Shown here piece after piece: positions 5,223 through 63,351 of a DNA stretch of 64,000 nt; position 1 is the first letter of the stretch, and every line of letters begins with the position of its first letter. The position numbers and the translations under genes are program-made. The stretch covers positions 3,808-67,807 of the forward strand of contig DAIMCS010000005.1 of NCBI GenBank assembly GCA_036726225.1, given 5' to 3'. The notes under the pieces are model-generated. The model was not told the origin of the DNA and made no database searches. It saw only the letters and a list, made by a program, of their open reading frames with translations. Source of the DNA: Patescibacteria group bacterium (GTDB lineage Bacteria; Patescibacteriota; Doudnabacteria; UBA920).

Positions 5223-6534
5223 TTATGAAGTTCAAAATTTCCTGTTGTGAAAGTTCTTTTTCCGCAGATTCCTTCAAACTTTTCACTTTATACTTCCCGC
5301 TTTTAACTTCCTCTTCCCCTACCACCAACACAAAAGGAATTTTTTCTTTGTCCGCGGTTTTTACCTGCGCGGAAACTTTGCGGTCTGTAAGGTCAACCGC
5401 TACAGCCAGGCCCTGCTCACGTAAATTTGATGCTAATTTATTTGCAGCCTCAAGATAATTTTCCAAATGGCAAATGTACAGCTTAACCGGTGGCTGGTAT
5501 GGTGGCAACAGATTGTATGTCTCCAAAAAATCCCTGGTTGTCACGTCGCCCCAGCCAAAACCTATGCCCGTAACTTTCTCTACCCCAAAAATTCCGACCA
5601 AATCGTCATAACGGCCGCCGCCAAAAAGCGCGCGCGGATTTTTTGGGTTAGTGTCGTACATTTCAAAAACCGTGCCTGTGTAATAGTCAAAACCGCGCAC
5701 CAGCATTTCGTCTATTACTGCATTTTTTATACCTTTTTTTACGAGCGCTTGTTGAACCGACATAAGCTCTTTGTACTCTTCACTATTTTTATATTTGCTG
5801 TCTTCAAAAAAATCCAGGCCGCGGTTTATAAAATTGGCAACATCTACAGATTTTTCAGAGCCGCCCATTTTTTCTTTTACCATTTCATCCACATCTGCCG
5901 ATGAAATTTTATCCTTTTTGTCCATTATCTTTGAAACAGCCTGGGATTGTTCGGGGTTTAGGCCCAAAACCTCCCGGAGTAAAAAATTTAAAAACTTGCG
6001 GTTGTTAATGCGAATAACAAACTGCTCGGCCGTGGCTCCAAACGCCCTCATAGCATCGTGCGCCAGAGAGATAATTTCAATATCTGCGTCTATGCCGTCC
6101 ACCCCGAACATATCTACATTTAACTGCCAGTGTTCGCGAAGGCGCCCACGCTGTGGGCGTTCGTAGCGAAAAAGATTGGGGATGGAATACCATCTAAGAG
6201 GAAAACTTAACTCTTTACGCTTTTGCGCCACCATCCTCGCAACGGTTGGTGTCATTTCCGGCCGAATAGTGACATCACGCCCGCCCCTGTCTGTAAAAGT
6301 ATAAGTTTGTTCATTAACAATTTCGTCGCCCGACTTAGCTTTGTACAATTCTGTTTCTTCTAAAATTGAAGCTCCATATTCTAAGTAGCCGTAACTTTCC
6401 ACAACTTTGCGCCAAACCGAAAAAATATAGTTTTGCACAAACTGGTCTTGCGGGTAGAAATCCCGCGTACCTTTATAGGGTTCCAAAGATAATTTTTTTG
6501 TATTTTTTTCCATATTTATTGACCAGTAACCCAC
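5209..6534 (-). CDS. hisS: Histidyl-tRNA synthetase
   Basis: Class II aaRS motifs. GTRDFYPQD N-terminus. 441 aa. Confidence 0.9.
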   Translation of the reverse strand: MGYWSINMEKNTKKLSLEPYKGTRDFYPQDQFVQNYIFSVWRKVVESYGYLEYGASILEETELYKAKSGDEIVNEQTYTFTDRGGRDVTIRPEMTPTVARMVAQKRKELSFPLRWYSIPNLFRYERPQRGRLREHWQLNVDMFGVDGIDADIEIISLAHDAMRAFGATAEQFVIRINNRKFLNFLLREVLGLNPEQSQAVSKIMDKKDKISSADVDEMVKEKMGGSEKSVDVANFINRGLDFFEDSKYKNSEEYKELMSVQQALVKKGIKNAVIDEMLVRGFDYYTGTVFEMYDTNPKNPRALFGGGRYDDLVGIFGVEKVTGIGFGWGDVTTRDFLETYNLLPPYQPPVKLYICHLENYLEAANKLASNLREQGLAVAVDLTDRKVSAQVKTADKEKIPFVLVVGEEEVKSGKYKVKSLKESAEKELSQQEILNFINAGI

Positions 6535-18896: not shown

Positions 18897-20429
18897 ATGG
18901 CGACTTTAAATTGGATAGGAAAAGAAGCAGTAGTGAATCACGATAAAGAAGTGCCTTTTAAACTGCTCCAAAAAGTGCCGAGTGCTTCGGTGGGTAAGGA
19001 ATCAAAAAACCTTATCATTCACGGAGATAATCTTGAAGCTCTAAAGGCACTTATACCTTTTTATAAAAGTAAGGTGAAGTGCATTTATATTGATCCACCT
19101 TACAACACAGGCAACGAGGGTTGGGTATATAACGACAAAGTTAATTCTCCCAAAATCCAAGAATGGATTAAGAAGGTTGTTGGACGAGAGGGAGAAGATT
19201 TGACCCGCCACGATAAATGGATATGTATGATGTATCCAAGAATGAAGTTGCTACGCGACTTACTTGCAAACGATGGTGTAATTTTCGTAAGTATTGATGA
19301 CAACGAACAGCACTATCTAAGAATGGTTATGGACGAGATTTTTGGCGAAAAAAACTTTGTTGCTGACTTCATTTGGAATCACAGGAAATCAGGTCAAAAT
19401 GATATTGATGTATCTTTGTCTCATAATTATACGCTCTGTTATGCAAAAAAAAGAGCTGGACTCTTTTTGAATCGTCTCGCTATTGATGAAGGAAAGTTTT
19501 CTAATCCAGATAGCGATCCACGGGGCGATTGGGTTGCCGACCCTATGGACGCCCCCGCAATCCGAGAAAATTTAATGTATCCAATCATTAACCCAAATAC
19601 GAAACAAACATTTTTACCCCCTGTTGGGAGACATTGGCGATTTACTAAGGAAAAATACGAACAAGCGTTGAAGGATAATAGAATTGTTTTCGGGAAAACT
19701 GGCAAGTCCAAACCACAATTCAAACGCTTTAAAAGCGAAGCAGAGGAAAAAGGCATAAATGTTTTTACTATTTGGGACGATGTAGGAACTGCAACAGAAG
19801 GAACAAAAGAAATAATGGAGCTTTTTGGTGGAAAAAAAATCTTTGATACTCCTAAGCCAACTTCGTTTATTAAGAAAATTATTAAAATTGCTACGAAAGA
19901 TAATTCAATCGTATTGGATTCTTTTGCTGGTTCTGGGACAACTGGACACGCCGTTTTGGATTTAAATAAAGAAGATGGAATCAAACGCAGTTTTATTTTA
20001 GTAGAAATGGAAAATGATGTTGCTAAGAAAATTACCGCCGAGCGTATAAAGAGGGCTATCAAAAAGTATAAATATGATGACGGCTTTGAATATTGCGAAC
20101 TAGCCAAACCGCTTTTCAATGAGAAAGGGCAAATCAATGAGCAATGCACATATGGAGAACTTGCTACTTATATTTATTTTACCGAGACGCGAACAAATGC
20201 GGAAAAGAAGACTATCAAGTCGCCATTCATAGGAGAAAGTGGAGGCGTTTCTTACTACCTTATTTATGAAGGCAGAGATAAGAACGATCTCACTCGTTCA
20301 GCCCTTACGAAGTTGAAAATAAAGAAGCCAGCCGTAGTTTATGCGGATCGCTGTTTGGTGGACGAAGATGAGTTAAGAGAAAAAGGGATTGTATTCAAAC
20401 AAATCCCATACGAGATAAAAGTTTACTAA
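18897..20429 (+). CDS. Type III restriction-modification methyltransferase (Mod, N6-adenine, beta class)
   Basis: DPPYN motif IV precedes FAGSGTTG motif I (permuted order). The adjacent Res helicase-nuclease supports the call. Confidence 0.8.
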   Translation: MATLNWIGKEAVVNHDKEVPFKLLQKVPSASVGKESKNLIIHGDNLEALKALIPFYKSKVKCIYIDPPYNTGNEGWVYNDKVNSPKIQEWIKKVVGREGEDLTRHDKWICMMYPRMKLLRDLLANDGVIFVSIDDNEQHYLRMVMDEIFGEKNFVADFIWNHRKSGQNDIDVSLSHNYTLCYAKKRAGLFLNRLAIDEGKFSNPDSDPRGDWVADPMDAPAIRENLMYPIINPNTKQTFLPPVGRHWRFTKEKYEQALKDNRIVFGKTGKSKPQFKRFKSEAEEKGINVFTIWDDVGTATEGTKEIMELFGGKKIFDTPKPTSFIKKIIKIATKDNSIVLDSFAGSGTTGHAVLDLNKEDGIKRSFILVEMENDVAKKITAERIKRAIKKYKYDDGFEYCELAKPLFNEKGQINEQCTYGELATYIYFTETRTNAEKKTIKSPFIGESGGVSYYLIYEGRDKNDLTRSALTKLKIKKPAVVYADRCLVDEDELREKGIVFKQIPYEIKVY

Positions 20430-20430
20430 T

Positions 20431-22704
20431 ATGAAACTAAAACGCTACCAAGAAAACGCAATAGAAAAACTGGAAGAGTTTTTAGCGTTGCTCAAAAAGC
20501 AAAAGCCAAAACTTGCTTTCTATGAATTGACCGAAGAAAAATATAATGCCGAGTGGTTCGGTGATGTGCCTTTTGTTTGTATACGCATACCGACTGGTGG
20601 CGGAAAAACACTCGTCGGCTGTAAGTCAGTTGAACGGATAATGTCTATCGCATTACAGCACAAAATGGATACGGGTATTGTGATGTGGTTCGTGCCGTCC
20701 GATTCAATAAAGACGCAGACACTAAAAAAGTTTAGAGATTTGAAAGACTACCACTATGAAATGCTCAACGATTCTTTTGATACTAAGTTCAAAGTCTTTT
20801 CTAACGAGGAAGCACTTACCATTACGCCCGAAGATGTAAGAAATAATCTTTGTATTGTAGTCGCCAGTTTAGACGCTTTCCGTAAAGATCAGAAGATACA
20901 AAATAAATACAAGGTTTACAAAGAGAACGGGTCATTGATGGATCATTTCCAAAACCTTAAAGATGATTCGGCTCTTGAAAAAGATAAAGCGGGAACAGTC
21001 GTAAGTTCGTTAGCGAATGTCGTTCGTAAAAATAACCCACTCATTGTGATAGACGAAGGTCACCATACGCAAACAGAGCTATCAGTAGATATGCTTAAAG
21101 GACTTAGACCCTCTTTCATTATTGAGTTCACGGCTACGCCAAGAGACGGGAGCAATGTGCTTGTTCATACAAGTGCTTCGGAATTGAAAATTGAGGAGAT
21201 GGTAAAGATTCCTATTGTGCTTGAAAGTCGGACACAATGGGAACAGGTAGTCGCTGACGGAATAGCAAAGCGTGAGGAGCTTGAAAAACGAGCTAAGAAA
21301 CTTAAAGGCGAGTACATCCGCCCAATAGTTTTGCTTCAAGCCCAACCGAAAAGCAAAGTTAAAGCGACAATAACGATAGAGCAACTCAAACAGATGTTGC
21401 TTGATAAAAAAATTCCTGAAGAACAAATAAAAATAAAGACTTCGGAAGCTGATGAATTAGAAGGAATTGATTTGTTCTCTAAGAAATGTGAGGTGCGATA
21501 TATTCTCACAGTAAACGCACTTGCAGAAGGTTGGGACTGCTCCTTCGCTTATGTGCTTATTTCTGTTGCGAACTTAGGAGCAAGAATAGCAGTAGAGCAG
21601 ATTATCGGACGTGTTATCAGAATGCCTAACGCTCGCCGCAAAGAAGACGAAGCAATGAATCGCAGTTATGTATTTGCTTCTTCAGTAGATTTTAACGAGG
21701 CGGCGGACAAGGTTATCAAGGGACTTGTGGATAACGGATACAGCAAGAACGACCTTATTAGTGTTGCTGACGAGAAAGACTACTCCGATCCGTTAGAAGC
21801 GAAGAAGGCAATCAAAAAAGATTTGAAAGTGCCGATGATGACGCTCGGCAAAGACAAACTTTCCTTTGAAGACCTCTTGGGTGAGGACTTCAAATTAGCA
21901 AAACAGGACGCAGACTTTGATTTTAAAATCCATTATGACTTTGACGGGCAAGCAACGATAGATATTACGGAAGATGATGAGTGGCTACAAGGCAAACAGT
22001 TGAGCTTGCCGTATCAGTATCTTGAAGGCAATCACTCCGTTGAGGAATTAGCGTCTTGGCTTGATAAGAAGCTCCGCTTCCCAATGCTCAACCCCGACGA
22101 CAAAGCCGTCTTTATTGAAAGGGCTGTTCAAACGCAGATAAAGAAAAAGCGTAAACTCGCTGAATTATCGGTGAATAGATATTTACTCGCCGATCGCCTA
22201 AGTGTGGTGATAAATGAAATTCTTGAATTGTATACGAAAAAGATTTTTAACGGCTTGATGGCAAAAAAGAGCATTACTCTTGGTCTATTTGATTCGTATC
22301 CGACAACGATCACTCTCAAGTCGCCTGTGCCGAGGGTGTTTAATAAAAACCTATACGAGAGAATAGATGGTATCAACGGCGAGGAACGCGCGTTTGTAGA
22401 GCGTATTGACTTGGGGGCTTTGGATAATATTGAATACTGGGTGAGAAACCGAGAAAAAGTAGACCCGTTCTACATTCAAGGTTGGCGTAAAGGAAAGTTT
22501 TATCCCGACTTTGTGGCTATAACCAAGAAAGGCAACATCGTTGCCCTTGAATGGAAGGGAGAAGATCGCGTAAGCAACGAGGATACCGCCTACAAAGTAG
22601 AAATAGGAAATATTTGGGAAAAACTTGGTCGTGGTAAAACCTATTTCTTTCTCGTTCATAATGGGAATACCGAAGAAGTTTTAGGTAAACTGCGAAACCT
22701 ATAA
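20431..22704 (+). CDS. Type III restriction enzyme Res subunit (SF2 helicase + PD-(D/E)xK nuclease)
   Basis: Walker A PTGGGKT. DEGH box VIDEGHH. C-terminal YPDF...EWK nuclease motif. Start codon overlaps the mod stop. Confidence 0.8.
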   Translation: MKLKRYQENAIEKLEEFLALLKKQKPKLAFYELTEEKYNAEWFGDVPFVCIRIPTGGGKTLVGCKSVERIMSIALQHKMDTGIVMWFVPSDSIKTQTLKKFRDLKDYHYEMLNDSFDTKFKVFSNEEALTITPEDVRNNLCIVVASLDAFRKDQKIQNKYKVYKENGSLMDHFQNLKDDSALEKDKAGTVVSSLANVVRKNNPLIVIDEGHHTQTELSVDMLKGLRPSFIIEFTATPRDGSNVLVHTSASELKIEEMVKIPIVLESRTQWEQVVADGIAKREELEKRAKKLKGEYIRPIVLLQAQPKSKVKATITIEQLKQMLLDKKIPEEQIKIKTSEADELEGIDLFSKKCEVRYILTVNALAEGWDCSFAYVLISVANLGARIAVEQIIGRVIRMPNARRKEDEAMNRSYVFASSVDFNEAADKVIKGLVDNGYSKNDLISVADEKDYSDPLEAKKAIKKDLKVPMMTLGKDKLSFEDLLGEDFKLAKQDADFDFKIHYDFDGQATIDITEDDEWLQGKQLSLPYQYLEGNHSVEELASWLDKKLRFPMLNPDDKAVFIERAVQTQIKKKRKLAELSVNRYLLADRLSVVINEILELYTKKIFNGLMAKKSITLGLFDSYPTTITLKSPVPRVFNKNLYERIDGINGEERAFVERIDLGALDNIEYWVRNREKVDPFYIQGWRKGKFYPDFVAITKKGNIVALEWKGEDRVSNEDTAYKVEIGNIWEKLGRGKTYFFLVHNGNTEEVLGKLRNL

Positions 22705-22710
22705 AAAGAT

Positions 22711-24558
22711 ATGAGACTACTCAATTTTAGAATTAAAAATTATAAGTCCATCACCGATTCAAAAGATGTATTCCTCTCCGAGTTGGATAACATTACTATC
22801 CTCGCGGGACAAAATGAATCTGGTAAAAGTTCTATTTTACGGGCTTTGAATGATTTTGAAAGCGGAGAATTTGAAAAAGATTCAGTTCCTTTTTCACTTG
22901 AAAACGAAACTCAACAATCCGTGAGTTGCACTTACCGGATTGAGGATCAAGACAACCTAATTGAGCTTTTGACCGATTCAGTCATTGAAGATTTTTCTCT
23001 TAAATTACAGGAGGGTGAACAGATTTTGGATAAAGAGAAAATTGCGAGAATAAAAAACTTTACCCTAAGCCGCATAAGTGAAAAAGACGCTGTTCGTCTT
23101 GAGTTAGATGACGCAACTTTCAATATTTTTAAATCCGCCGTTCTTGAAAAACCGGCAATACCAAATCCAACTGCCGAGCAAGAACAGGGTGATGTTGTGA
23201 AAGAAAAGTATATCGCTGTTTCTGAAGATATGAATAGTAAAGTTGCCGAAATATTTTGGGCAAATTGCCCAAAGGTTGTTTACTTTGATGATTTTTGTGA
23301 CTTACTACCGGACAAGATTTTTATTTCAGCTCTAAAAAATAAGCAAAAAGATACACAGGGATATAAAGCCGTGAGGAACTTAGAGAATATTCTCAAAACG
23401 GATTTTGTATCAAAGGACGGAGAAGTTGATTCCCGACGAAGAACCAAAGAGACGCGAGAAAACGATACTCTTTCAATTGATTTCCAAAATGATTGGGGTC
23501 AAAGGATACACGGAGAGAACAAGGTTATCGTCAAGTATAATTTTGAGAAGCGTGTCGGTGATAATGAAAATGGTTCTTATGTTAATTTCTTTGTAGAAAC
23601 GAAGGAGGGGCAACCTCTACCACCTAAGCAAAGGAGTAAAGGATTGATTTGGTTTCTATCTCTTTGGCTTGAACTCAAAGCACAAAATGCTTCCGGTAAT
23701 GATTTAATTCTTCTATTAGATGAGCCAGATCAACATTTACATGTTAAAGCTCAAAAAGATATTTTAAAACTTATAAATAAACTTGCGACAACTACCGAAG
23801 TTGAAGAATCAGAAGCAGAGCGACGCGGCGATCAAATAATCTACGCTACTCATTCGCCCTACCTCATTGAGATAGAGCGTTTAAATCGCGTAAAGTTGAT
23901 AATCAATTCAGAAAAGCAAGGAACTCAAGTTGAAGATATTGCGACAAGCAAGATAAATACCGAGTTCAAAAAAGACGCCCTACAACCTATTGTGGACGCA
24001 ATAGGGTTAAGTGTTAATGAGTTTTCTTCGTTAGACAAAAACAATATTATTCTTGAGGGGATTTCGGATTTTTATTATTTCTCTGCTTTTAAGAAGCTCT
24101 TACAACGCACCGAAGAGTATAAGTTTATTCCGGGAATCGGCGTTAGGCAGATAAATAATCTAATATCTCTTGCTATCGGCTACGATCTCAACTGGTTGGT
24201 TATCATTGATGATGATCCAACTATTGGCGGGAAAGATTCAAAGAAGAAATATGACGAGATAAAAGACCATGTTTTTGATGGTGATTCAGCAAAAACGGAC
24301 AAGAAGGTAAATATTTTGAGCGGAATCGTTGGAGTAGAAAACATGTTTACGATTGACGACTTAAAATTAGTTGATTCAAAGGTTAATACTAATACCGATA
24401 TGGTTAAGGTTGTGGGGAAAAGGAGAAAAGTCTTGTTTGCTCAAATGTTTTATGAAAAAGTCTTGAGTGGAGAGATTACAAAGGATAAGCTATCACAATC
24501 TTCCATCAATAACTTTACCCAAGCCTTTGATTTTATTGACAGAGGTATGACCATCTAA
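22711..24558 (+). CDS. OLD-family ABC-ATPase/Toprim nuclease (class 1 OLD or fused PARIS-like AriAB)
   Basis: GQNESGKSS Walker A. LLLDEPDQHLH Walker B/D-loop. C-terminal Toprim with EGISD and IIDDD motifs. No adjacent helicase. Confidence 0.7.
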   Translation: MRLLNFRIKNYKSITDSKDVFLSELDNITILAGQNESGKSSILRALNDFESGEFEKDSVPFSLENETQQSVSCTYRIEDQDNLIELLTDSVIEDFSLKLQEGEQILDKEKIARIKNFTLSRISEKDAVRLELDDATFNIFKSAVLEKPAIPNPTAEQEQGDVVKEKYIAVSEDMNSKVAEIFWANCPKVVYFDDFCDLLPDKIFISALKNKQKDTQGYKAVRNLENILKTDFVSKDGEVDSRRRTKETRENDTLSIDFQNDWGQRIHGENKVIVKYNFEKRVGDNENGSYVNFFVETKEGQPLPPKQRSKGLIWFLSLWLELKAQNASGNDLILLLDEPDQHLHVKAQKDILKLINKLATTTEVEESEAERRGDQIIYATHSPYLIEIERLNRVKLIINSEKQGTQVEDIATSKINTEFKKDALQPIVDAIGLSVNEFSSLDKNNIILEGISDFYYFSAFKKLLQRTEEYKFIPGIGVRQINNLISLAIGYDLNWLVIIDDDPTIGGKDSKKKYDEIKDHVFDGDSAKTDKKVNILSGIVGVENMFTIDDLKLVDSKVNTNTDMVKVVGKRRKVLFAQMFYEKVLSGEITKDKLSQSSINNFTQAFDFIDRGMTI

Positions 24559-53508: not shown

Positions 53509-54060
53509 TCAATTAGTTGAACTCGGCCGCAACGTAGCTTCCGGAGTTAAATATTTTTTTGCAAAATACATTATCGCTAATAACATTAAAGGCTGCCAGA
53601 CTAAAAATAAAATCCCAAAATCATTAAAATGAATTGGTATATATACGGAAAACCCAAGCACGCCTCCCCACAAGCTTAGCTTAATAACTTCAGCGATACT
53701 TATTGATACTAGCATCCACCTCACAGCCATAACGCTTAAAAACGCTCCGATACACCCTCCGAAAAAAAAGCTTAAGGGCTCCAGAAAGTCCACAGTATAA
53801 AGGGTAGCCCAAAAAGCTGCCATGTAGGCAATTATGCTCGCTAGAACAAACCCTACAAACCCCAACCATTTAGTGTGCCCACAGATAATTATAAAAGCCA
53901 AGCATGTTGAGAGCCCAAAAAATAAACCGGGAAAAATATCAAAATATACCGCATTTCCAGAATATATTTGGTATAAATCAAGCTTGGGAGGGACGTATAC
54001 AGTTAACGCTCCTGAAATTAAACCGAGTACTAAGCTAAAAAAAATATTTTTGATATTCAT
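53509..54060 (-). CDS. Multi-TM membrane protein, hypothetical
   Basis: Five or six hydrophobic segments. Confidence 0.35.
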   Translation of the reverse strand: MNIKNIFFSLVLGLISGALTVYVPPKLDLYQIYSGNAVYFDIFPGLFFGLSTCLAFIIICGHTKWLGFVGFVLASIIAYMAAFWATLYTVDFLEPLSFFFGGCIGAFLSVMAVRWMLVSISIAEVIKLSLWGGVLGFSVYIPIHFNDFGILFLVWQPLMLLAIMYFAKKYLTPEATLRPSSTN

Positions 54061-55076
54061 TAATCTTTTTTCTTATTTACTTTCGCGAGTAATTTCTTTT
54101 TAAATTTCTCAGTGGTAATTTCTACAGGCTTAAAACTTTTCATTTTGGAAAGCTTGGCGAGCATTTCTTTCTTATACAAAAGGCCTGCCTGAGGGCCAAC
54201 TTGCAGAACACAAGAGCCGGCATTCATTGGGCCCCAGCGCAATGCTTCTTTATGCGGGTTGCCGTAAAACAAAGCAGACACATAGCCCGTGGTAAACGCA
54301 TCACCTGCGCCTGTAGCCTCAATACGAGGCCCTGGAAATTCTTGCAGATAGTAGAACCCTTCATCGCTGTAGCTGTATGCGCCTTTTCGGCCGTCAGTAA
54401 GCACAATGGCTTTTGGCCCTAGCTTCTTGAGTTTTTTGCAAAGGTCCTCCGGGTCGCGTCCGCTGTTTCCGACCCAAGCTTGGGCCTCTTCTACGTTGAG
54501 TGATAGTAAAGTTGTATTTTCTAAAATTATTTTATTAGCTTTTACGCCCGCCCTAAGCTGGAAGGTGCCGGGGTTGTAAGCTAATTTAACATTATTTTTC
54601 TTTAAATAATTTACTAAATCTTTGTGGATGGTTTCAAAGCCGTGTCCCGTGCTGGTTAAATACACCCATTTAGCCGGCGCCAGTTTTGGCAGTTTATATT
54701 TTCTGTGTTCATGGTAAACCAAAATGGTGCGCTCGCCTTGGTAAGAAATTACGGTTGACGCGTTGGTCGGGTGTTTGTCGTTCTTATCTATATAGATAGG
54801 CGAAACTCCCTCTTTTACCATTTTGTGAACAATTTCGCGTCCGCCGGTGTCGTGCGCCACAACGCAGTAAAAAGCGACTTTTAAGCCTAAACGGGATGCG
54901 CCAACTGCATTGTTAGCCGCATTGCCTGCCACGGTGCGGTAAAATTCATCCACCGGCAATTTGTCACCCCAGTTTATAATTGCTTTCTTCGCGCCATTGA
55001 TTTTTTTAATTTCAATGTCGTGGATCATTAAAAACGTGTCGATTGTCGGGTCTCCTATGGAAATGATGTCGAACAT
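54060..55076 (-). CDS. PfkB-family sugar kinase with a Lys-rich C-terminal extension
   Basis: GAGDAFTTGY motif. Confidence 0.7.
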   Translation of the reverse strand: MFDIISIGDPTIDTFLMIHDIEIKKINGAKKAIINWGDKLPVDEFYRTVAGNAANNAVGASRLGLKVAFYCVVAHDTGGREIVHKMVKEGVSPIYIDKNDKHPTNASTVISYQGERTILVYHEHRKYKLPKLAPAKWVYLTSTGHGFETIHKDLVNYLKKNNVKLAYNPGTFQLRAGVKANKIILENTTLLSLNVEEAQAWVGNSGRDPEDLCKKLKKLGPKAIVLTDGRKGAYSYSDEGFYYLQEFPGPRIEATGAGDAFTTGYVSALFYGNPHKEALRWGPMNAGSCVLQVGPQAGLLYKKEMLAKLSKMKSFKPVEITTEKFKKKLLAKVNKKKD

Positions 55077-55093
55077 AAGTTAGTGAATAGTGG

Positions 55094-55453
55094 TTAGTGA
55101 TTAGTTATTAGTTTTTTAATTCTAAAATATTTAATTAAACTCAAACCAATAAAACTAAGTCCAATATAAGTTAATGCATTAACATAAAAATTTTTTTGAT
55201 AATAGCTAGGTACATTCTCATTCACTTCTAAGCAACGTTTTATTTTTAAAGGCCAACCAACGTGATAGCAAGTAGCATCAGCGTCATAAAAATTTAGCCA
55301 AAACTTAGGCAAGTTTTTAATATCACCATCGATTACGCTTTGATTGCCGGCAAATATATTATAGTAATTCATTACAAAATAATTTACAGCCAGTCCAATA
55401 ATTATGCTCCATATAACCAAACTCGTTTTTGTTTGCAGACTGAAAATTTTCAT
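55094..55453 (-). CDS. Small two-TM membrane protein, MKIFSLETKKH paralog family, member 1
   Basis: N-terminal MKIFSLQTK, the GWP motif and a C-terminal TM + basic tail shared with 57810-58674. Confidence 0.45.
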   Translation of the reverse strand: MKIFSLQTKTSLVIWSIIIGLAVNYFVMNYYNIFAGNQSVIDGDIKNLPKFWLNFYDADATCYHVGWPLKIKRCLEVNENVPSYYQKNFYVNALTYIGLSFIGLSLIKYFRIKKLITNH

Positions 55454-55465
55454 TTACTTTTTTAC

Positions 55466-55553
55466 GGCGTCATTCTGAGGGAGTGCATCCGACCGAAGAA
55501 TCCCTTAATTGAGATCCTTCGCCCTCAGATGCATTCGGGCTCAGGATGACGCC
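55466..55553. other. 88-nt imperfect palindrome (long stem-loop) 13 nt upstream of the start codon of 55094-55453
   Basis: ggcgtcattctgagg...cctcagatgcattcggg...ctcaggatgacgcc. Confidence 0.4.
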
Positions 55554-55586
55554 AAGCTTCGGATGTTAATTGTTAATTGTTTTATT

Positions 55587-55630
55587 CCTGTAGACATCTG
55601 TAGTTAAATTTATAGATTCTGTAGTTTATA
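55587..55630. promoter_or_regulatory. Conserved CTGTAG/ACTACAG triple-repeat motif (copy 1) at the tkt-C 3' end
   Basis: 40/45-nt identity with 62548-62591. Confidence 0.4.
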
Positions 55631-56603
55631 CCTTCTTTCTCTTTAAAACTTTTTTAACCGCTTCAATAACCGCCGTCTTACCCATTCCATACTTTTCTAT
55701 TAATTCTTCCGGCTGGCCGGATTCGCCAAACGAATTGGGCATGCCAACCATTTCTACAGGTACAGGATGATTTTGGGCAAGCACTTCGCATACAGCCGAG
55801 CCGCAACCCGCCATGGTTTGGTGTTCTTCTAAAGTTACCACGGCCCCACAAGTTTTAGCCGCGTTGATAATTGTAGCAGCGTCAATGGGTTTAATAGTGT
55901 GGTTATTTACAACCATAACCGAAATCCCCTCTTTTTCCAGCTCTATTGCCGCCAAAAGGCCGTTATACAAAACCGGGCCTGAAGCTATTATAGCAACATC
56001 TTTGCCTTCTTTAAAAATTTCCGCCTTACCTACTGCAAAAGGCGTTTGTTCGGTGGTTATAATAGGCGTTTTACTTCTTCCTAAACGAAAATACGCCGGT
56101 CCGAGCATTGTGCCTAAAGCCCGAACAGTTTTACGCGCTTCAATAGCATCGCACGGCACCTCTACTATAATATTTGGCAAGACGCGGGTAATGGCTACAT
56201 CTTCTAAAGCCTGATGCGTAGCGCCGTCCGGACCGACTGATATGCCCGTATGCGCTCCGGCAACTTTTACATTTGCCTGGCTATAGCAAACAGAAACTCT
56301 AAGCTGGTCCCAAGAGCGTCCCGGTGAAAAAGTTGCATAAGACGAGACGAATGCGGTTTTTCCGGTAAGCGCTAACCCTGCTGCAATGCCCATCATATTC
56401 TGCTCGGCCACGCCGCATTCCACAAACCTTTCCGGATATTTTTTTGCAAAATCTAAAACCATGGTGGACTCCGCCAAATCTGCAGTCAGCACCACAACAT
56501 TTTCATCGTGTCCGCCCAAATCTAAAACTCCCTGCCCGTAACCTTTACGAGTGGCTTCCTGTTCAACGTCTTTTTGTCCGATTTTTGGGTTTAATTGAAT
56601 CAT
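55626..56603 (-). CDS. Transketolase C-terminal subunit (pyrimidine-binding + C-terminal domain)
   Basis: Split tkt. ATG at 56603 (MIQLNPK...) preferred. Confidence 0.85.
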   Translation of the reverse strand: MIQLNPKIGQKDVEQEATRKGYGQGVLDLGGHDENVVVLTADLAESTMVLDFAKKYPERFVECGVAEQNMMGIAAGLALTGKTAFVSSYATFSPGRSWDQLRVSVCYSQANVKVAGAHTGISVGPDGATHQALEDVAITRVLPNIIVEVPCDAIEARKTVRALGTMLGPAYFRLGRSKTPIITTEQTPFAVGKAEIFKEGKDVAIIASGPVLYNGLLAAIELEKEGISVMVVNNHTIKPIDAATIINAAKTCGAVVTLEEHQTMAGCGSAVCEVLAQNHPVPVEMVGMPNSFGESGQPEELIEKYGMGKTAVIEAVKKVLKRKKV

Positions 56604-56613
56604 AAAAATAGGT

Positions 56614-56835
56614 TTAGGAAAAAGCTCCAGGAGGAAAATCAATTTTTATTGGCATAAACGCCAATAAGGCATTATAAATTAATACAATTATGCCTAAAAT
56701 TAAAAGTATCAGGCCTAAAATACGTTGCATGCTGGTTTTCTGATTTTCATCGAGCTTATTATGCCTAAGAAGAAATATACCCAGAATGATAGCAATGATT
56801 GACCCGACAAATTGTTTCCAAAATATTATTATCAT
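56614..56835 (-). CDS. Small membrane protein, hypothetical
   Basis: Two TM segments. Lies between the tkt halves. Confidence 0.3.
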   Translation of the reverse strand: MIIIFWKQFVGSIIAIILGIFLLRHNKLDENQKTSMQRILGLILLILGIIVLIYNALLAFMPIKIDFPPGAFS

Positions 56836-56858
56836 CTATTTACAGATTTACTTTCTAA

Positions 56859-57758
56859 TTATTGATGTTCGCTTTGAATTTTCCCTCGGAGTGTCCTAAG
56901 TTCATCAAGGGCTATTCTTGCCTGTTCCGCTTTAGGTGGCGCACCGGCAACATCTTGAGCTCCGGGAGGCATGCCGTGCCATTTGTAATCGTATTCCATA
57001 AAATCCACGCCTTTGCCGGCAATGGTATGAGCAATAATGATGGTGGGTTTTTCGTAAATGGCTTTTGCCTCGTGGCAGGCATCTATAATTTCTTGAATAT
57101 TATGGCCGTCTATTTCCAAAACATGCCAGTTAAAAGCTTCATACTTAGCGCGTAAATTTTCCAGCGGCATTATGTCTTCTGTGTAGCCGTCTATTTGGAT
57201 GTTGTTGCGGTCCATAATTGCCGTAATGTTGTGAAGTTTATTTTTTCCTGCAAACATAACTGCTTCCCAAGTTTGGCCTTCCTGCTGCTCGCCGTCCGAC
57301 ATTACCAAATACACCCGATTTTTCATGCGGTTCATTTTAAGCGCCAGCGCTATTCCAACTGCCTGTGATGATCCTTGAGCCAAAGGACCGGAGGATGTTT
57401 CAACGCCAGGCAATGCCAGATTATGAGGATGGCCGTGCAGCCTTGTGCCAAGCTTTCTTAAAGTCTTTAGCTCTTCTTTTGGAAAATATCCGGCTTCGGC
57501 AAGCGTGGCGTACAAAACAGGATTAATATGGCCGCAAGACAAAACAAAACGGTCCCTGCCTTCCCATTTGGGATTTTGAGGGTCGTGCTCCATTACGTTA
57601 AAATAAAGTGACGCAAAAACATCGGCCATATCCAAAGGACCGGCGGAATGCCCGCTTCCTGCAGCCACCAGCATTTCAATAATATCCTGCCTTATGTCGT
57701 TGGCTTTGTATGTTAGCTCATTTAAAGATAATTTTTGCATTTTTTTATGTTTTCCCAT
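56859..57758 (-). CDS. Transketolase N-terminal subunit (TPP-binding)
   Basis: GHSAGPLDMA and GDG motifs. Confidence 0.85.
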   Translation of the reverse strand: MGKHKKMQKLSLNELTYKANDIRQDIIEMLVAAGSGHSAGPLDMADVFASLYFNVMEHDPQNPKWEGRDRFVLSCGHINPVLYATLAEAGYFPKEELKTLRKLGTRLHGHPHNLALPGVETSSGPLAQGSSQAVGIALALKMNRMKNRVYLVMSDGEQQEGQTWEAVMFAGKNKLHNITAIMDRNNIQIDGYTEDIMPLENLRAKYEAFNWHVLEIDGHNIQEIIDACHEAKAIYEKPTIIIAHTIAGKGVDFMEYDYKWHGMPPGAQDVAGAPPKAEQARIALDELRTLRGKIQSEHQ

Positions 57759-57809
57759 TTCGATTCCGACAAAGTCGGAAGAGAAATCTGTTTTTTTATA
57801 GATCTCTCC

Positions 57810-58169
57810 CTACGGTCGAGATGGTGGGAATGTTTGATTTTTCTTTCTAAAATGTCTTACTAAACTTAAAATGATCAAGGAGATGGCTATCCAAAACAAA
57901 GTGTCTAAAGAGTACGCGCGAAAATATCCTGGCTCAGTATAAAATGGCGGTTTTATATCATAGCATGGGTCGCAGATTACTCTCGATACTGAGAAGGGCC
58001 ATCCAATTTGCTGCTTTACATTAACCCATACTGAAGGATCTATTAGAAAAGTACCGTCCGCGCTTTGGTCTCTATAACTTAAATTGAATACAAAAAAATT
58101 TATCGCCACCCCAAGTACCAAACCCCAACCTACCAAATGTTTTTTTGTTTCCAAACTAAAGATTTTCAT
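57810..58169 (-). CDS. MKIFSLETKKH-family small membrane protein, member 2
   Basis: Paralogous to 55094-55453. Confidence 0.45.
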   Translation of the reverse strand: MKIFSLETKKHLVGWGLVLGVAINFFVFNLSYRDQSADGTFLIDPSVWVNVKQQIGWPFSVSRVICDPCYDIKPPFYTEPGYFRAYSLDTLFWIAISLIILSLVRHFRKKNQTFPPSRP

Positions 58170-58423
58170 ACTTTTTGTTTTCTAAGATGTCTTAATAGAC
58201 TTAAAACAATAAAAGCTACGAGAATCCAAAATAACAAATCTAAATTTTGATTATTGAAAGGCCAACTCAAACTTTCCAAGCAATCGATCTGGTCATTAAT
58301 TATTGAAGCGCAATTATACCTATTTTGAAGTGCTTTAAAGGTAATTGCATAATTAATAAAAACACCCAATAAAAGACTCCAAATTACTAAATGTTTTTTT
58401 GTTTCCAGGCTAAAAATTTTCAT
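58166..58423 (-). CDS. MKIFSLETKKH-family small membrane protein, member 3
   Basis: Tandem paralog with an overlapping stop/start. Confidence 0.45.
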   Translation of the reverse strand: MKIFSLETKKHLVIWSLLLGVFINYAITFKALQNRYNCASIINDQIDCLESLSWPFNNQNLDLLFWILVAFIVLSLLRHLRKQKV

Positions 58424-58674
58424 ACAGAGCCTTTATTTCTAAAATGCTTTACTAAACTTAAAATTCCCAAAAAAATCAGAAACCAAAAAATAAAACTGAA
58501 AAATAAGGAGCTAAACGGCCAATATGCCTTAAGCGCCTGGTCGCAAGAATTGGTTACTACGCAATTGTTATGCTGCCATGATCTTTTAAAAGAAATAATA
58601 TTATTTATAGCAACGGACAAACCAGCGCTCCATCCCAACAAATGCCTAATTGTCTCCAAACTAAAAAAGTTCAT
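58420..58674 (-). CDS. MKIFSLETKKH-family small membrane protein, member 4
   Basis: Tandem paralog starting MNFFSLETIRH. Confidence 0.45.
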   Translation of the reverse strand: MNFFSLETIRHLLGWSAGLSVAINNIISFKRSWQHNNCVVTNSCDQALKAYWPFSSLFFSFIFWFLIFLGILSLVKHFRNKGSV

Positions 58675-58763
58675 AGACTTTCATTATTACTCTCCCCAAT
58701 TTATGGGGAGATGTCCCGACATCAGTCGGGACAGAGGGGTTAAGCTAAAGCATTAACCTCTCC

Positions 58764-59405
58764 CTAAGAGTTTACTGCCATTTGTAGCTTTTCGTAAGCC
58801 AAATTTACATCATCCGCTTTAACCAAAGCAGAGCCTACGCAAATTAAGTCCGCCCCAGCTTCTTTTATCGCTTTTATGTTGGTTTCGTTAACTCCGCCGT
58901 CTACCTCTATTATAGCATGCGGTTTTAACTCCTTTAATTGCTTAATTCTGCCCAAAGTCGACTCTATAAACTGTTGTCCCTGCTTACCTGGAACCACGCT
59001 CATTATTAAATATTGGTCTGCCTCAACATCGGCTAATGCCTTAACAGCCGTTTTAGGATTTATAGCCACAGATGTCTTAAAATTCATTGCCTTAATTGTT
59101 GCCAAAGCTTTCTTTAAATCAGCAGGCGAGGAGTAGGCTTCGTAATGAACAATAATAGTTTTAAAGCCGCAAATTTGATAGTCTAAAAAATCGTTCGGGG
59201 CTTTAAGCATTAAATGCGCTTCCCATTGGAAGGCGGGGTTTAGCGTGTCCATTTCGGCAGCAGACAACAATTTATTTTCAATAAACTCGCCGTCACCAAA
59301 ATCCACCTGAATTCTTTCTAAGGCCGGCAACTTGGAAATTCTGAAAACTTTTTCTAAAAAGCCTTCTTTAGTTTGCTCTAAAATTGCTGGTAGAATTAAG
59401 GACAT
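58764..59405 (-). CDS. rpe: Ribulose-phosphate 3-epimerase
   Basis: HLML and VDGG motifs. Size. Confidence 0.75.
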   Translation of the reverse strand: MSLILPAILEQTKEGFLEKVFRISKLPALERIQVDFGDGEFIENKLLSAAEMDTLNPAFQWEAHLMLKAPNDFLDYQICGFKTIIVHYEAYSSPADLKKALATIKAMNFKTSVAINPKTAVKALADVEADQYLIMSVVPGKQGQQFIESTLGRIKQLKELKPHAIIEVDGGVNETNIKAIKEAGADLICVGSALVKADDVNLAYEKLQMAVNS

Positions 59406-59410
59406 GGGAA

Positions 59411-59776
59411 CTAGGAGTTAGGAGTTAGATTTTTAATCATTGTATTTAACATCCGCATTATTTCATCAAGCAAAGGGTCAACTTTTGAAAAATTTAAATT
59501 CTTGCCAAAAGGTAATTTTTTAGCAACAGCGATGTGACTTTCAAGCTCGGCGCCGGAACCAAAAGCAATTACTAAAAATTGACGGAATTCTTTTTTACTG
59601 CCAAGACGTCGGCCTTCGGCTATATTAGCTGGGATAGACACTCCGGCTCTTCTAGTTTGTGAAGTTAATCCATATATCTCTATTTTTGGATAGTCATCAG
59701 TTAACTCATAGATGGCTACCACAAGTTCCACTGATTTCTGCCAAACAATTAAATCTTTATAACTTTGGATTTCCAT
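59411..59776 (-). CDS. Four-helix-bundle protein (23S rRNA IVS protein family)
   Basis: YKDLIVWQKS...AEG pattern typical of PF05635. Confidence 0.6.
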   Translation of the reverse strand: MEIQSYKDLIVWQKSVELVVAIYELTDDYPKIEIYGLTSQTRRAGVSIPANIAEGRRLGSKKEFRQFLVIAFGSGAELESHIAVAKKLPFGKNLNFSKVDPLLDEIMRMLNTMIKNLTPNS

Positions 59777-61026: not shown

Positions 61027-61410
61027 CTACGAATCCCTGCGCAAGACCCGATGGGGCAGGGCGGATTTGGCCCAAAAATTAATTAATAAACCTAATTTCA
61101 AATTTAAAACCTTTAAATATCTTTGGACTTGGGCAAAATCATCTTCATTTAAAAAAGGCTTTGCCTTAACTTCAACTAAAATTTTATCAAACAAAACTAA
61201 ATCCGCGCGATTGCCGGTACCCGAAGCGACCAATTCTCTTCTGCATGGAATTTCCAGTTCTTTTGCCCTGTCCTCAAAACTATCGCAAAACTGCCTTTCT
61301 TTAGCAAACCTTCCCAGCCTATTTTGGACATAAAAACAAATGCCGTTGATTTGAAAACATTCATCAGCATATAAGACTTTGGTTTTGTCCACTTGGTATC
61401 GTGTTTGCAT
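61027..61410 (-). CDS. GxxExxY-like PD-(D/E)xK family small protein, hypothetical
   Basis: DLVLFDKILVEVKA nuclease-like motif. About 127 aa. Flanked by inverted cgaatcaacgaata / cgaatctgcgaa modules. Confidence 0.4.
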   Translation of the reverse strand: MQTRYQVDKTKVLYADECFQINGICFYVQNRLGRFAKERQFCDSFEDRAKELEIPCRRELVASGTGNRADLVLFDKILVEVKAKPFLNEDDFAQVQRYLKVLNLKLGLLINFWAKSALPHRVLRRDS

Positions 61411-62591: not shown

Positions 62592-62962
62592 CTACTATCC
62601 AAATAATTTTGCAACAAAATTTGTGCTGCTAAACTGTCCAGATCTTTTTTACCACCGCTGATATTTTCCGCCATAGCCGATGATAAGCGCTCGTCAGTAA
62701 TATCTATTTTAATATCTATTAATTTCTCCAATTTCTCTTTGAAAGCTTTCACCTCTTCCGTTTTTTTTGTTTCCTGTCCACTCATATTTAGCGGCCAGCC
62801 TAGAACAATTTGTGATACCTGATTTTCGTCGATGACCGATTTTATAGTTTCCCAAAATTCTTTTGGTGAAAGTATTTTAAGCTCTCTGGCAAACGTCAAA
62901 GATTCGTCGGAAATTGCCAAACCAATCCTTTTTTCACCAAAATCAATTCCAAGGGTTTTCAT
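62570..62962 (-). CDS. ruvX: Holliday-junction resolvase-like YqgF/RuvX
   Basis: LGIDFGEKRIGLAISD N-terminus. Confidence 0.85.
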   Translation of the reverse strand: MKTLGIDFGEKRIGLAISDESLTFARELKILSPKEFWETIKSVIDENQVSQIVLGWPLNMSGQETKKTEEVKAFKEKLEKLIDIKIDITDERLSSAMAENISGGKKDLDSLAAQILLQNYLDSRNKLQKL

Positions 62963-63351
62963 ACTCCCCTCCCCTTATTAATAAGGGGAGGTTGGGAGGG
63001 GATATTCTTTATTTCCTGGATTATCCTCTCAACAACTCCTTCTAAATTGTTTAATACTTCGTTATCGTAAAACCTCAGTACACTTATATTTTTGGAATTA
63101 AAAAATCGGGTTCTATTTTTGTCATAAGTAATGTTGTCTTTTTGCATATGCTGACTACCGTCTAACTCTACTGCCAACCTTAAAGACGGACAATAAAAGT
63201 CGGCTATAAATTTTCCCACACTATATTGCCTTGTAAATTTAAAACCCATAATTTGATTTCTTCTTAATACTGACCACATTTTTCTTTCGGCATCTGTGGA
63301 ATTATTTCTCAATTCTTTTCTGAAACCTTTTAAAATTTTATCCTGATACAT
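62959..63351 (-). CDS. DUF559 (Vsr-like endonuclease domain) protein, selfish-type insertion
   Basis: FYCPSLRLAVELDGSQH pattern of DUF559. Flanked by GC palindromes at both ends. Confidence 0.65.
   Translation of the reverse strand: MYQDKILKGFRKELRNNSTDAERKMWSVLRRNQIMGFKFTRQYSVGKFIADFYCPSLRLAVELDGSQHMQKDNITYDKNRTRFFNSKNISVLRFYDNEVLNNLEGVVERIIQEIKNIPSQPPLINKGRGV
62964..63002. repeat. GC-rich palindromic repeat family 1, copy d (encodes the DUF559 C-terminus; supplies the SD for ruvX)
   Basis: ctcccctccccttattaataaggggaggttgggaggggat. Confidence 0.6.

Follow-up and report, generated by a model that had tools for sequence, protein, structure and literature searches.

A lineage-specific family of small, predicted two-helix membrane proteins with a hypervariable loop in a central-metabolism operon of Doudnabacteria-like Patescibacteria

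We analysed a 64-kb stretch of contig DAIMCS010000005.1 from a Patescibacteria group bacterium (hereafter the window, meaning all 64,000 nucleotides) and focused on four small open reading frames (ORFs) between positions 55094 and 58674. Our comparison confirmed that these ORFs are genuine paralogs and that they belong to a narrow, lineage-specific family of Doudnabacteria-like Patescibacteria. The genes are real, with selection at the level of the peptide and fixed slots in operons, and the loop between their two conserved ends is hypervariable and mosaic between genomes. No relative or annotation was detectable for the family, and variable small membrane proteins with constant anchors are already a known kind. 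The reading that we prefer, with a probability of about 40%, is that the family encodes a membrane-anchored protein whose variable external loop would serve in envelope recognition or protection.

Three of the ORFs form an overlapping tandem and the fourth stands alone (Table 1). ATGA stop/start overlaps were located at 58423–58420 (copies 1 and 2) and 58169–58166 (copies 2 and 3). Pairwise BLASTP among the four gave E values from 1e-19 to 6e-4. A hidden Markov model of the four copies, run against the six-frame translation of the window, found only these four (E 4e-33 to 5e-48), and the next-best match had an E value of 0.5. In the full-length alignment M1, F4, S5, L6, T8, L12, W15, W-P, L-S-L and the tail arginine are invariant. 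Every copy contains exactly two cysteines, which lie in the loop that separates the hydrophobic segments, and ends with a transmembrane (TM) segment followed by a basic cluster. In all these points, namely four related ORFs of 84–119 amino acids, the ATGA-linked tandem, the paired loop cysteines and the C-terminal TM with its basic tail, the results bear out the first-pass annotation of this DNA. Its GWP(F/L) motif holds for the WP(F/L) part in all copies (GWPF, SWPF, YWPF and GWPL), but the preceding glycine is present in only two of the four. Copy 1 (58420–58674; MNFFSLETIRH...) is the most divergent, and its TM1 falls below the hydropathy threshold used. It was not returned by our protein search and has no gene call in four public copies of the contig.

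We investigated the extent of the family with two protein searches. A word-indexed search with the four-sequence profile as query returned 39 homologs of about 60–140 amino acids, and no Pfam domain or credible name was found among them. An exhaustive HMMER search with a 38-member profile against 1.84 billion cluster representatives (50% identity clusters) returned 283 clusters at E ≤ 1e-3 and 180 at E ≤ 1e-10. The best 150 of these 283 proteins are 83–244 amino acids long, mostly about 90–140. Conservation is concentrated at both ends. The N-terminal consensus is M-K-I-F-S-L-(E/Q)-(S/T)-K-x-x-L-x-x-W-S-x-x-L-G, with columns 88–99% conserved, and the C-terminal consensus is N-x-x-F-W-I-L-V-x-x-I-I-L-S-L-x-R-(H/Y)-F-(R/K)-K-K. 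Among 151 sequences, the counts were 144 for F4, 148 for L6, 144 for W15, 126 for S16 and 130 for G20.

Across 24 genes the N-terminal motif is encoded by varying synonymous codons (Ile ATT/ATA/ATC, Phe TTT/TTC, Leu TTA/TTG/CTG/CTT). Thus, the constraint acts on the peptide and not on a DNA or RNA element. A DNA- or RNA-level cause of the conserved N-terminus was ruled out by this free synonymous variation together with the lack of an Rfam match; Rfam gave only two sub-threshold chance matches over the family genes. In one close pair of family genes omega was about 0.19.

The family-bearing genome records are metagenome-assembled genomes of Candidatus Doudnabacteria or of the 'Patescibacteria group', and some carry the automatic label uncultured Saccharibacteria; the operon synteny is common to all of them. 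We scanned genomes for the exact N-terminal motif, a requirement by which copies with a diverged motif would be missed, and obtained 1–2 matching loci per genome and 1–3 copies per locus in 14 genomes with motif-matching loci. The four copies in the window are therefore at the high end, and the family can be called expanded, as it had been in the first pass, only in a relative sense.

We compared the proteins with known families by sequence and by fold. None of the four window copies matched Pfam-A or NCBIfam above the curated cut-offs (best E 0.015–0.3), immunity families included, and a scan of 38 single members with the same databases touched six unrelated families, one member each. PHROGs gave no match for six of the eight proteins tested, among them all four window copies, and two homologs reached only E 0.04–0.1. 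The PADLOC defence models gave one weak match (E 0.035) for one copy only. A profile search of Protein Data Bank (PDB) sequences returned a single chance match (E 1.7), and Foldseek found nothing below E 1 in PDB or BFVD (best BFVD hit, E 1.1). No relatives were found in 2.9 million viral contigs, and a viral origin was rejected on this basis. Likewise, PHROGs, the viral contigs and Foldseek against BFVD gave no indication of a phage holin or lysis protein, and the genomic context consists of housekeeping operons. We found no description of the family in the literature. These results agree with the earlier statement that the proteins can be assigned to no known family, and neither profile nor structure searches matched a characterised housekeeping family.

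The loop between the hydrophobic segments is 21–81 amino acids long (median 42) and net acidic. Lysine plus arginine amount to 0.22 per residue in the first 11 residues, 0.06 in the loop and 0.35 in the C-terminal tail. By the positive-inside rule this charge bias suggests a hairpin with both termini inside, and we strongly infer that the loop lies outside. Loop cysteines numbered 0, 1, 2 and 4 in 29, 1, 97 and 2 of 129 proteins, so that 128 of 129 have 0, 2 or 4; such parity is expected from disulfides in an oxidising compartment. MdbA-like thiol-disulfide oxidoreductases are enriched in candidate phyla radiation (CPR) bacteria (PMC6744442), which makes extracytoplasmic disulfides plausible.

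An AlphaFold2 (AF2) model of copy 3, built from a 38-sequence alignment, had a mean predicted local distance difference test score (pLDDT) of 76.8. It contains helices at 3–30 and 80–111, whose cores reach a pLDDT of 86–91, and a small beta-hairpin (51–55/61–65) with GWP at its tip. TM1 carries an SxxxG motif (W15-S16-x-x-L-G20), and TM2 is conserved in its sequence (N..FWILV..IILSL) and not merely in hydrophobicity. The two helices are predicted to pack through conserved small and polar residues. We also found four natural fusions in which two units form a single 4-TM protein: P0054, P0063, P0074 (= L020 4786-5508) and P0145 (P numbers denote proteins from the search, L numbers denote loci). 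The MKIFSL motif is lost from the second unit in two of the four. Such fusions suggest that adjacent units associate; the AF2 model of P0063, which addressed whether the units pack together, had a pLDDT of 51.5 and was too low to use.

The same shape could belong to a small channel, either homo- or hetero-oligomeric, that resembles MscL, class II holins or viroporins, with TM1 lining the pore and a basic cytoplasmic collar. MscL (PF01741) likewise has about 100–140 amino acids, two TM segments with both termini inside, a short conserved cytoplasmic N-terminus and a basic RKKEE cluster after TM2; the family hairpins have 85–140 amino acids, conserved SxxxG and asparagine in the TM helices, and fusions that suggest association. 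However, hhalign against E. coli MscL gave a probability of only 0.35%, and we rejected the homology that the two TM segments and the basic cluster had led us to suspect. Hypervariable loops are not normal for channels, and the family is absent from viral contigs. We regard a channel as very unlikely.

The loop could also be the mature product of a secreted or wall-attached disulfide peptide precursor, in which TM1 would act as signal peptide and TM2 plus the tail as a sorting signal cut by a sortase- or exosortase-like enzyme. The conserved ends and variable middle, a C-terminus composed of motif, TM and basic cluster, the WPF directly before TM2 in short members, and a loop cysteine pair typical of secreted peptides all fit this explanation. 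Proteins of the YSIRK and LPXTG type share the conserved N-terminal targeting motif, the variable middle and the C-terminal TM with basic tail. The bacteriocin idea of the first pass falls under this explanation too. However, no sorting motif was seen at a fixed distance from TM2: TM and basic cluster are present, but the G(W/F)P motif lay from 0 to about 30 residues before TM2, and in many members the basic cluster is followed by another 5–15 residues. Spanning about 20 residues, TM1 carries the SxxxG packing residues, no conserved A-x-A-type cleavage site follows it, and TM2 is conserved in sequence. AF2 confidently packs both helices against each other, a further difference from the YSIRK and LPXTG type, and no sortase, exporter or dedicated processing peptidase was found in the annotated neighbourhood. 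A secreted peptide is thus quite improbable.

About 45 related loci, taken from genomes and metagenomes, were compared. In them the family genes point the same way as their neighbours and recur in three slots, Rpe–TktN (at least 14 distinct loci), TktC–PfkB (at least 15 distinct loci) and PilB–PilC in the type IV pilus operon (six loci: L009, L021, L022, L036, L047 and L052). The PilB–PilC members come from different lineages and lie between PilB (T2SSE) and PilC (T2SSF), upstream of PilM/N/O. Family genes overlap their neighbours or have short spacers, and tandem arrays of 2–4 units also occur in L020, L037 and L049. A few members lie elsewhere, after DnaX or between HU and a YjbQ-like gene, and a single locus (L023) has unrelated neighbour genes and a downstream ORF on the opposite strand. 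In the HU–YjbQ-like slot, L026 has a full family gene (6001-6348) and the related L029 a remnant of about 25 codons (6001-6075), which points to ongoing loss of the gene.

The pilus slot raises the question of whether the family is a type IV pilus accessory subunit, whose cytoplasmic face would dock on PilB/PilC and whose loop would co-evolve with fast-evolving pilins. A family member fills the PilB–PilC slot in six loci from different lineages, four pilin genes fill the TktC–PfkB slot of L005, and in L027 a pilin gene lies directly upstream of a family member in that slot. However, most copies are in the pentose-phosphate/glycolysis operon and not in pilus operons. Among the 14 genomes with exact-motif loci, the PilB–PilC slot was occupied in only two returned loci (L021, L022), in a scan that would miss copies whose N-terminal motif has diverged, and a pilin lay adjacent in no more than 2 of about 30 distinct genomes. 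The family has no similarity to known type IV pilus components and lacks the N_methyl pilin motif. These observations make a pilus role unlikely in our view.

Membership of the pilins or pseudopilins themselves was also rejected. The family consensus MKIFSL(E/Q)(T/S)KKHLVGW was compared with the class III signal peptide, and the likeness of K-I-F-S-L-E to K-G-F-T-L-I-E is superficial, even though some loci co-localise with pilus genes. The family has isoleucine instead of glycine at the would-be −1 position, glutamate at +4 and not +5, a charged TKKH insert that interrupts the helix, a second TM segment and no PF07963 match. Genuine pilins in the same loci, unlike the family, carry a perfect GFTLIELLVV. 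Such canonical pilin genes were observed inside the pentose-phosphate/glycolysis operon, in the TktC–PfkB slot, of L005 (10707-12828 and 4051-4623) and L027 (5361-5940).

Here, we explored how the loop varies when its surroundings do not. In same-slot pairs the family genes had a mean identity of 33–35% versus 68–77% for the flanking enzymes, and there was no correlation between the two. Between the window and L046, TktC and PfkB are 92% identical as proteins, and the first 96 and last 84 nucleotides of the family gene align like the flanks, whereas the loops (58 versus 29 amino acids) are no more similar than shuffled sequence. For L009 and L052, PilB is 94% identical and the first 27 nucleotides of the family gene are identical; TM1 and the loop cannot be aligned, while TM2, the tail and the 3' spacer are 85–90% identical. 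For L025 and L028, the flanks are 82% identical and the family gene is alignable only over its first 27 residues. As an internal control for this last pair, an adjacent 79-amino-acid protein with one TM segment, located in the PfkB–GAPDH slot, retains 71% identity.

The reverse case was found in L021 and L022. Here the family gene is 83% identical with a synonymous difference (pS) of 0.33, versus pS values of 0.71 for PilB and 0.77 for PilC. The block of high DNA identity runs from the family ATG to the PilC ATG, that is, over the ORF and its 3' spacer. Related loops also occur in different slots: the loops of P0025 (upstream of TktN) and L017_11320 (TktC–PfkB) are 58% identical (E 2e-8). A tree of 26 slot-labelled members was star-like, and positional orthology could not be read from it. 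Because the history of the gene is decoupled from its flanks while the ends persist, we read these patterns as recombination, that is, allele or cassette exchange probably anchored on the conserved ends.

We tried diversity-generating retroelements (DGRs) as a source of the variation and rejected them. No template/variable repeat pair was found in 55000–59000, where the only direct repeats are the conserved 5' and 3' coding ends of the family genes, and loop lengths differ, which DGRs do not produce. A 23S_rRNA_IVP (Avd-like) gene lies nearby, on its own within the annotated sequence.

The decoupled history could also mean that the ORF is a promoter-less hitch-hiking or mobile cassette of little function, or a cis-regulatory upstream ORF. 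The same permissive spacers host DUF559, PDDEXK_3 and 23S_rRNA_IVP genes, long inverted repeats bracket the ORF in several loci, and L029 holds the decayed remnant. However, both termini and TM2 are under strong purifying selection at the peptide level in the 283 clusters, and the cysteine parity is kept. No transposase or integrase is associated with the family, the bracketing repeats are absent from most loci, and a regulatory upstream ORF needs neither tandem arrays nor membrane topology. We consider this explanation highly improbable.

Inverted repeats of 27–45 nucleotides flank the family ORF in several loci (Table 1); their sequence differs by lineage while complementarity is kept. In about 8 of 37 loci the duplex of the cognate flanks has a better energy than almost every non-cognate pairing; the other loci show no such advantage, and we rejected the repeats as a general family feature for this reason. 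They could be an RNA processing stem or mark an insertion into a palindrome. In the window, three structured spacers with very stable RNA hairpins lie beside the family genes, and none of them matches Rfam. The CGTCATYCTGAG hairpin arm has no second occurrence in the window.

Near the window genes, consensus matches for promoters and terminators were no commoner than in shuffled sequence. The lack of recognisable signals of their own and the short or overlapping spacers indicate that the genes are probably expressed by read-through from the host operon, and translation of the tandem copies is probably coupled by way of the ATGA overlaps.

Taken as a membrane-anchored ectoloop protein for envelope recognition or protection, a family member would work as follows. 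The protein would be a small integral membrane helical hairpin with both termini in the cytoplasm, forming a constant anchor. Its near-invariant cytoplasmic face would be composed of MKIFSL(E/Q)(T/S)K and the juxtamembrane R(H/Y)F(R/K)KK cluster. Outside, a loop of 21–81 amino acids would be exposed, usually with one disulfide and with a small beta-hairpin whose tip is formed by the G(W/F)P turn. Read-through from core operons would supply expression, with coupled translation of tandem units. The loop would be the variable functional surface, swapped between lineages by recombination at the conserved coding ends, and it may contact, for example, host cells, phages or membrane-active toxins.

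Several points weigh against this reading. Expression, membrane insertion and surface exposure are predictions from sequence. A loop of 20–80 amino acids would lie under the cell wall or S-layer, and its exposure to hosts or phages is uncertain. Contingency or recognition genes are seldom found at fixed positions within operons for central metabolism or pili, and the cysteine pair and G(W/F)P place part of the loop under constraint. On the cytoplasmic side, strong conservation and a highly basic character point to an interaction partner inside the cell, for which the model does not account. Donor or silent cassettes were not identified, and the loop variation fits diversifying selection or relaxed constraint with indels alike. 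The earlier suggestion of a variable surface mini-protein array is consistent with the hypervariable, mosaic loop, although it is unproven.

CPR bacteria (Patescibacteria) are mostly uncultured episymbionts, and to our knowledge the determinants of their host contact are largely unknown. A more specific possibility, which we hold to be rather doubtful, is that an episymbiotic CPR lineage uses the family for variable recognition driven by recombination. The constant two-helix anchor would then display an exchangeable small loop stabilised by a disulfide, the invariant ends would be homology arms between paralogs and strains, and the loop would set host-cell, phage or kin specificity. If this is true, the core operons would ensure that the genes are expressed constitutively in a promoter-poor genome.

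We also considered immunity or protection against membrane-targeting toxins or phage, in the manner of orphan immunity arrays or superinfection-exclusion proteins. The family consists of small TM proteins in tandem arrays that are hypervariable with signs of allele exchange, a shape typical of immunity proteins for microcins and pore-forming colicins, which are likewise small, with few TM segments, fast-evolving and sometimes arrayed. However, no toxin, bacteriocin precursor or secretion genes adjoin the family in about 45 loci, neither NCBIfam and Pfam immunity families nor PADLOC defence models were matched, and the family is absent from viral contigs and sits in housekeeping operons. Such a role is therefore quite unlikely.

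A complete bacteriocin or microcin system found no support either. We annotated roughly 9–24.5, 34–46 and 44–64 kb of the window, with about 17 kb outside these parts. Neither the roughly 10 kb on either side, nor the remaining annotated sequence of the window, nor about 45 related loci contained a precursor, a C39-peptidase ABC exporter or modification genes. More generally, the annotated parts contain no ABC exporter, dedicated processing peptidase or precursor peptide. Their sole protease is a housekeeping protein of the HtrA type (Trypsin_2 + PDZ), whose gene marks the upstream limit of the super-operon, lies about 4 kb past the tandem array and runs off the 3' end of the window. The bacteriocin/immunity layout that had been proposed from the first look at the letters is thus unsupported, since the genes lie in a housekeeping super-operon with the same slots in about 45 loci.

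The closest analogies of design are two systems that are not homologous to the family. The Plasmodium '2TM superfamily' (Pfmc-2TM, STEVOR and RIFIN) is similarly multi-copy, with two TM segments flanking a short hypervariable exposed loop, a conserved remainder and a basic tail. However, these proteins are eukaryotic, larger, exported to the host cell and encoded in subtelomeric arrays, with no sequence relationship, whereas the family lies in bacterial housekeeping operons. The Vsp/Vlp/Vsa lipoproteins of Mycoplasma resemble it in coming from reduced-genome, host-associated bacteria and in having paralog arrays, a conserved N-terminal targeting region and an exposed part varied by recombination. 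They differ by their lipobox, repetitive ectodomains and invertase or slipped-strand switching; the family has no lipobox cysteine, repeats or invertase, and has a two-TM anchor.

Most protein families enriched in CPR are unannotated membrane proteins (PMC6744442). The present family is a compact and easily recognised candidate, and its near-invariant ends could serve as anchors for PCR or probes. The predicted exposed loop turns over faster than its surroundings, and the reproducible slots make alleles comparable across metagenomes. If the loop determines specificity, the family would offer direct access to host range or phage pressure in a single CPR lineage. Annotation also lags behind: no returned member has a credible name, and one window copy is uncalled in four public copies of the contig.

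In the window the family genes are surrounded by a glycolysis/pentose-phosphate super-operon, all on one strand, in the order GalT, PDDEXK_3, TIM, RpiB, 23S_rRNA_IVP, Rpe, three family genes, TktN, a 73-amino-acid TM ORF, TktC, one family gene, PfkB, a 183-amino-acid TM ORF, GAPDH, PGK, enolase and iPGM. The positions of the family genes and their borders are listed in Table 1.

Table 1. Positions of the family genes, their borders, the structured spacers and comparable features in related loci (window positions unless a locus is named).
Feature	Position	Strand	Remarks
Family copy 1 of tandem	58420..58674	-	84 aa; MNFFSLETIRHLLGWS...C38..C44..YWPF..LSLVKHFRNK
Family copy 2 of tandem	58166..58423	-	85 aa; MKIFSLETKKHLVIWS...C38..C48..SWPF..LSLLRHLRKQK; = P0002 in protein search
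Family copy 3 of tandem	57810..58169	-	119 aa; MKIFSLETKKHLVGWG...GWPF..C66DPC69..LSLVRHFRKK; = P0001 in protein search
Solo family copy, TktC–PfkB slot	55094..55453	-	119 aa; MKIFSLQTKTSLVIWS...C62..GWPL..C74..LSLIKYFRIKK
Ribulose-phosphate 3-epimerase (Rpe)	58764..59405	-	PF00834; upstream border of Rpe–TktN slot
Transketolase N-terminal subunit (TktN)	56859..57758	-	PF00456; downstream border of Rpe–TktN slot
Transketolase C-terminal subunit (TktC)	55626..56642	-	PF02779, PF02780; upstream border of TktC–PfkB slot
PfkB-family sugar kinase	54060..55076	-	PF00294; downstream border of TktC–PfkB slot
Structured spacer upstream of array	58675..58763	-	three consecutive RNA hairpins, -43.1 kcal/mol, z -7.3
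Structured spacer downstream of array	57759..57809	-	two hairpins, z -3.8
88-nt imperfect hairpin upstream of solo copy	55466..55553	-	GGCGUCAUCCUGAG...CUCAGAAUGACGCC; 117-nt spacer -51.9 kcal/mol, z -5.6
Bracketing inverted repeats	L009 7945-7974/8333-8362; L052 3212-3256/3556-3600; L021 4120-4146/4473-4499; L036 3771-3803/4106-4138
PfkB–GAPDH-slot entries in relatives	L005 13918-14133, L007 7327-7590, L025 7430-7669, L028 4969-5208, L040 6329-6595
Transketolase gap in relatives	L017 7204-10351, L025 1808-4930, L042 6190-8382, L007 4365-4766
Small multi-copy genes in relatives	L010 5658-6011, L018 6425-6745, L024 6491-6832, L045 3582-3923, L016 1405-1662, L019 5160-5486, L039 708-1016

Other positions of the super-operon also vary. 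In the PfkB–GAPDH slot, the 183-amino-acid multi-TM ORF of the window (53509–54060, minus strand) has no family match and a 36%-identical homolog in L033. Most relatives have in this slot a different conserved, unannotated single-TM protein of 71–88 amino acids (..DPNY.LRF...GSVLSWRS.LLFAAEYQEMP..). The gap between the split transketolase halves is a variable insertion point. It holds a 73-amino-acid two-TM ORF with weak DUF202-like matches in the window (56614–56835, minus strand); in relatives it is occupied by PDDEXK_3, by small soluble ORFs or by a membrane/secreted protein pair of about 730 and about 305 amino acids.

Small multi-copy genes (23S_rRNA_IVP, PDDEXK_3 and DUF559) are dispersed in the super-operon and were found in the window at 59411–59776, 61027–61410 and 62959–63351. 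DUF559 directly adjoins a family member in seven loci. Otherwise, the parts that we annotated contain ordinary CPR housekeeping genes and one block at 18897–24558 (plus strand) with an N6/N4 DNA methyltransferase, a ResIII helicase and an AAA_15 ATPase, preceded by an HTH gene. This block is probably a restriction-modification or defence island.

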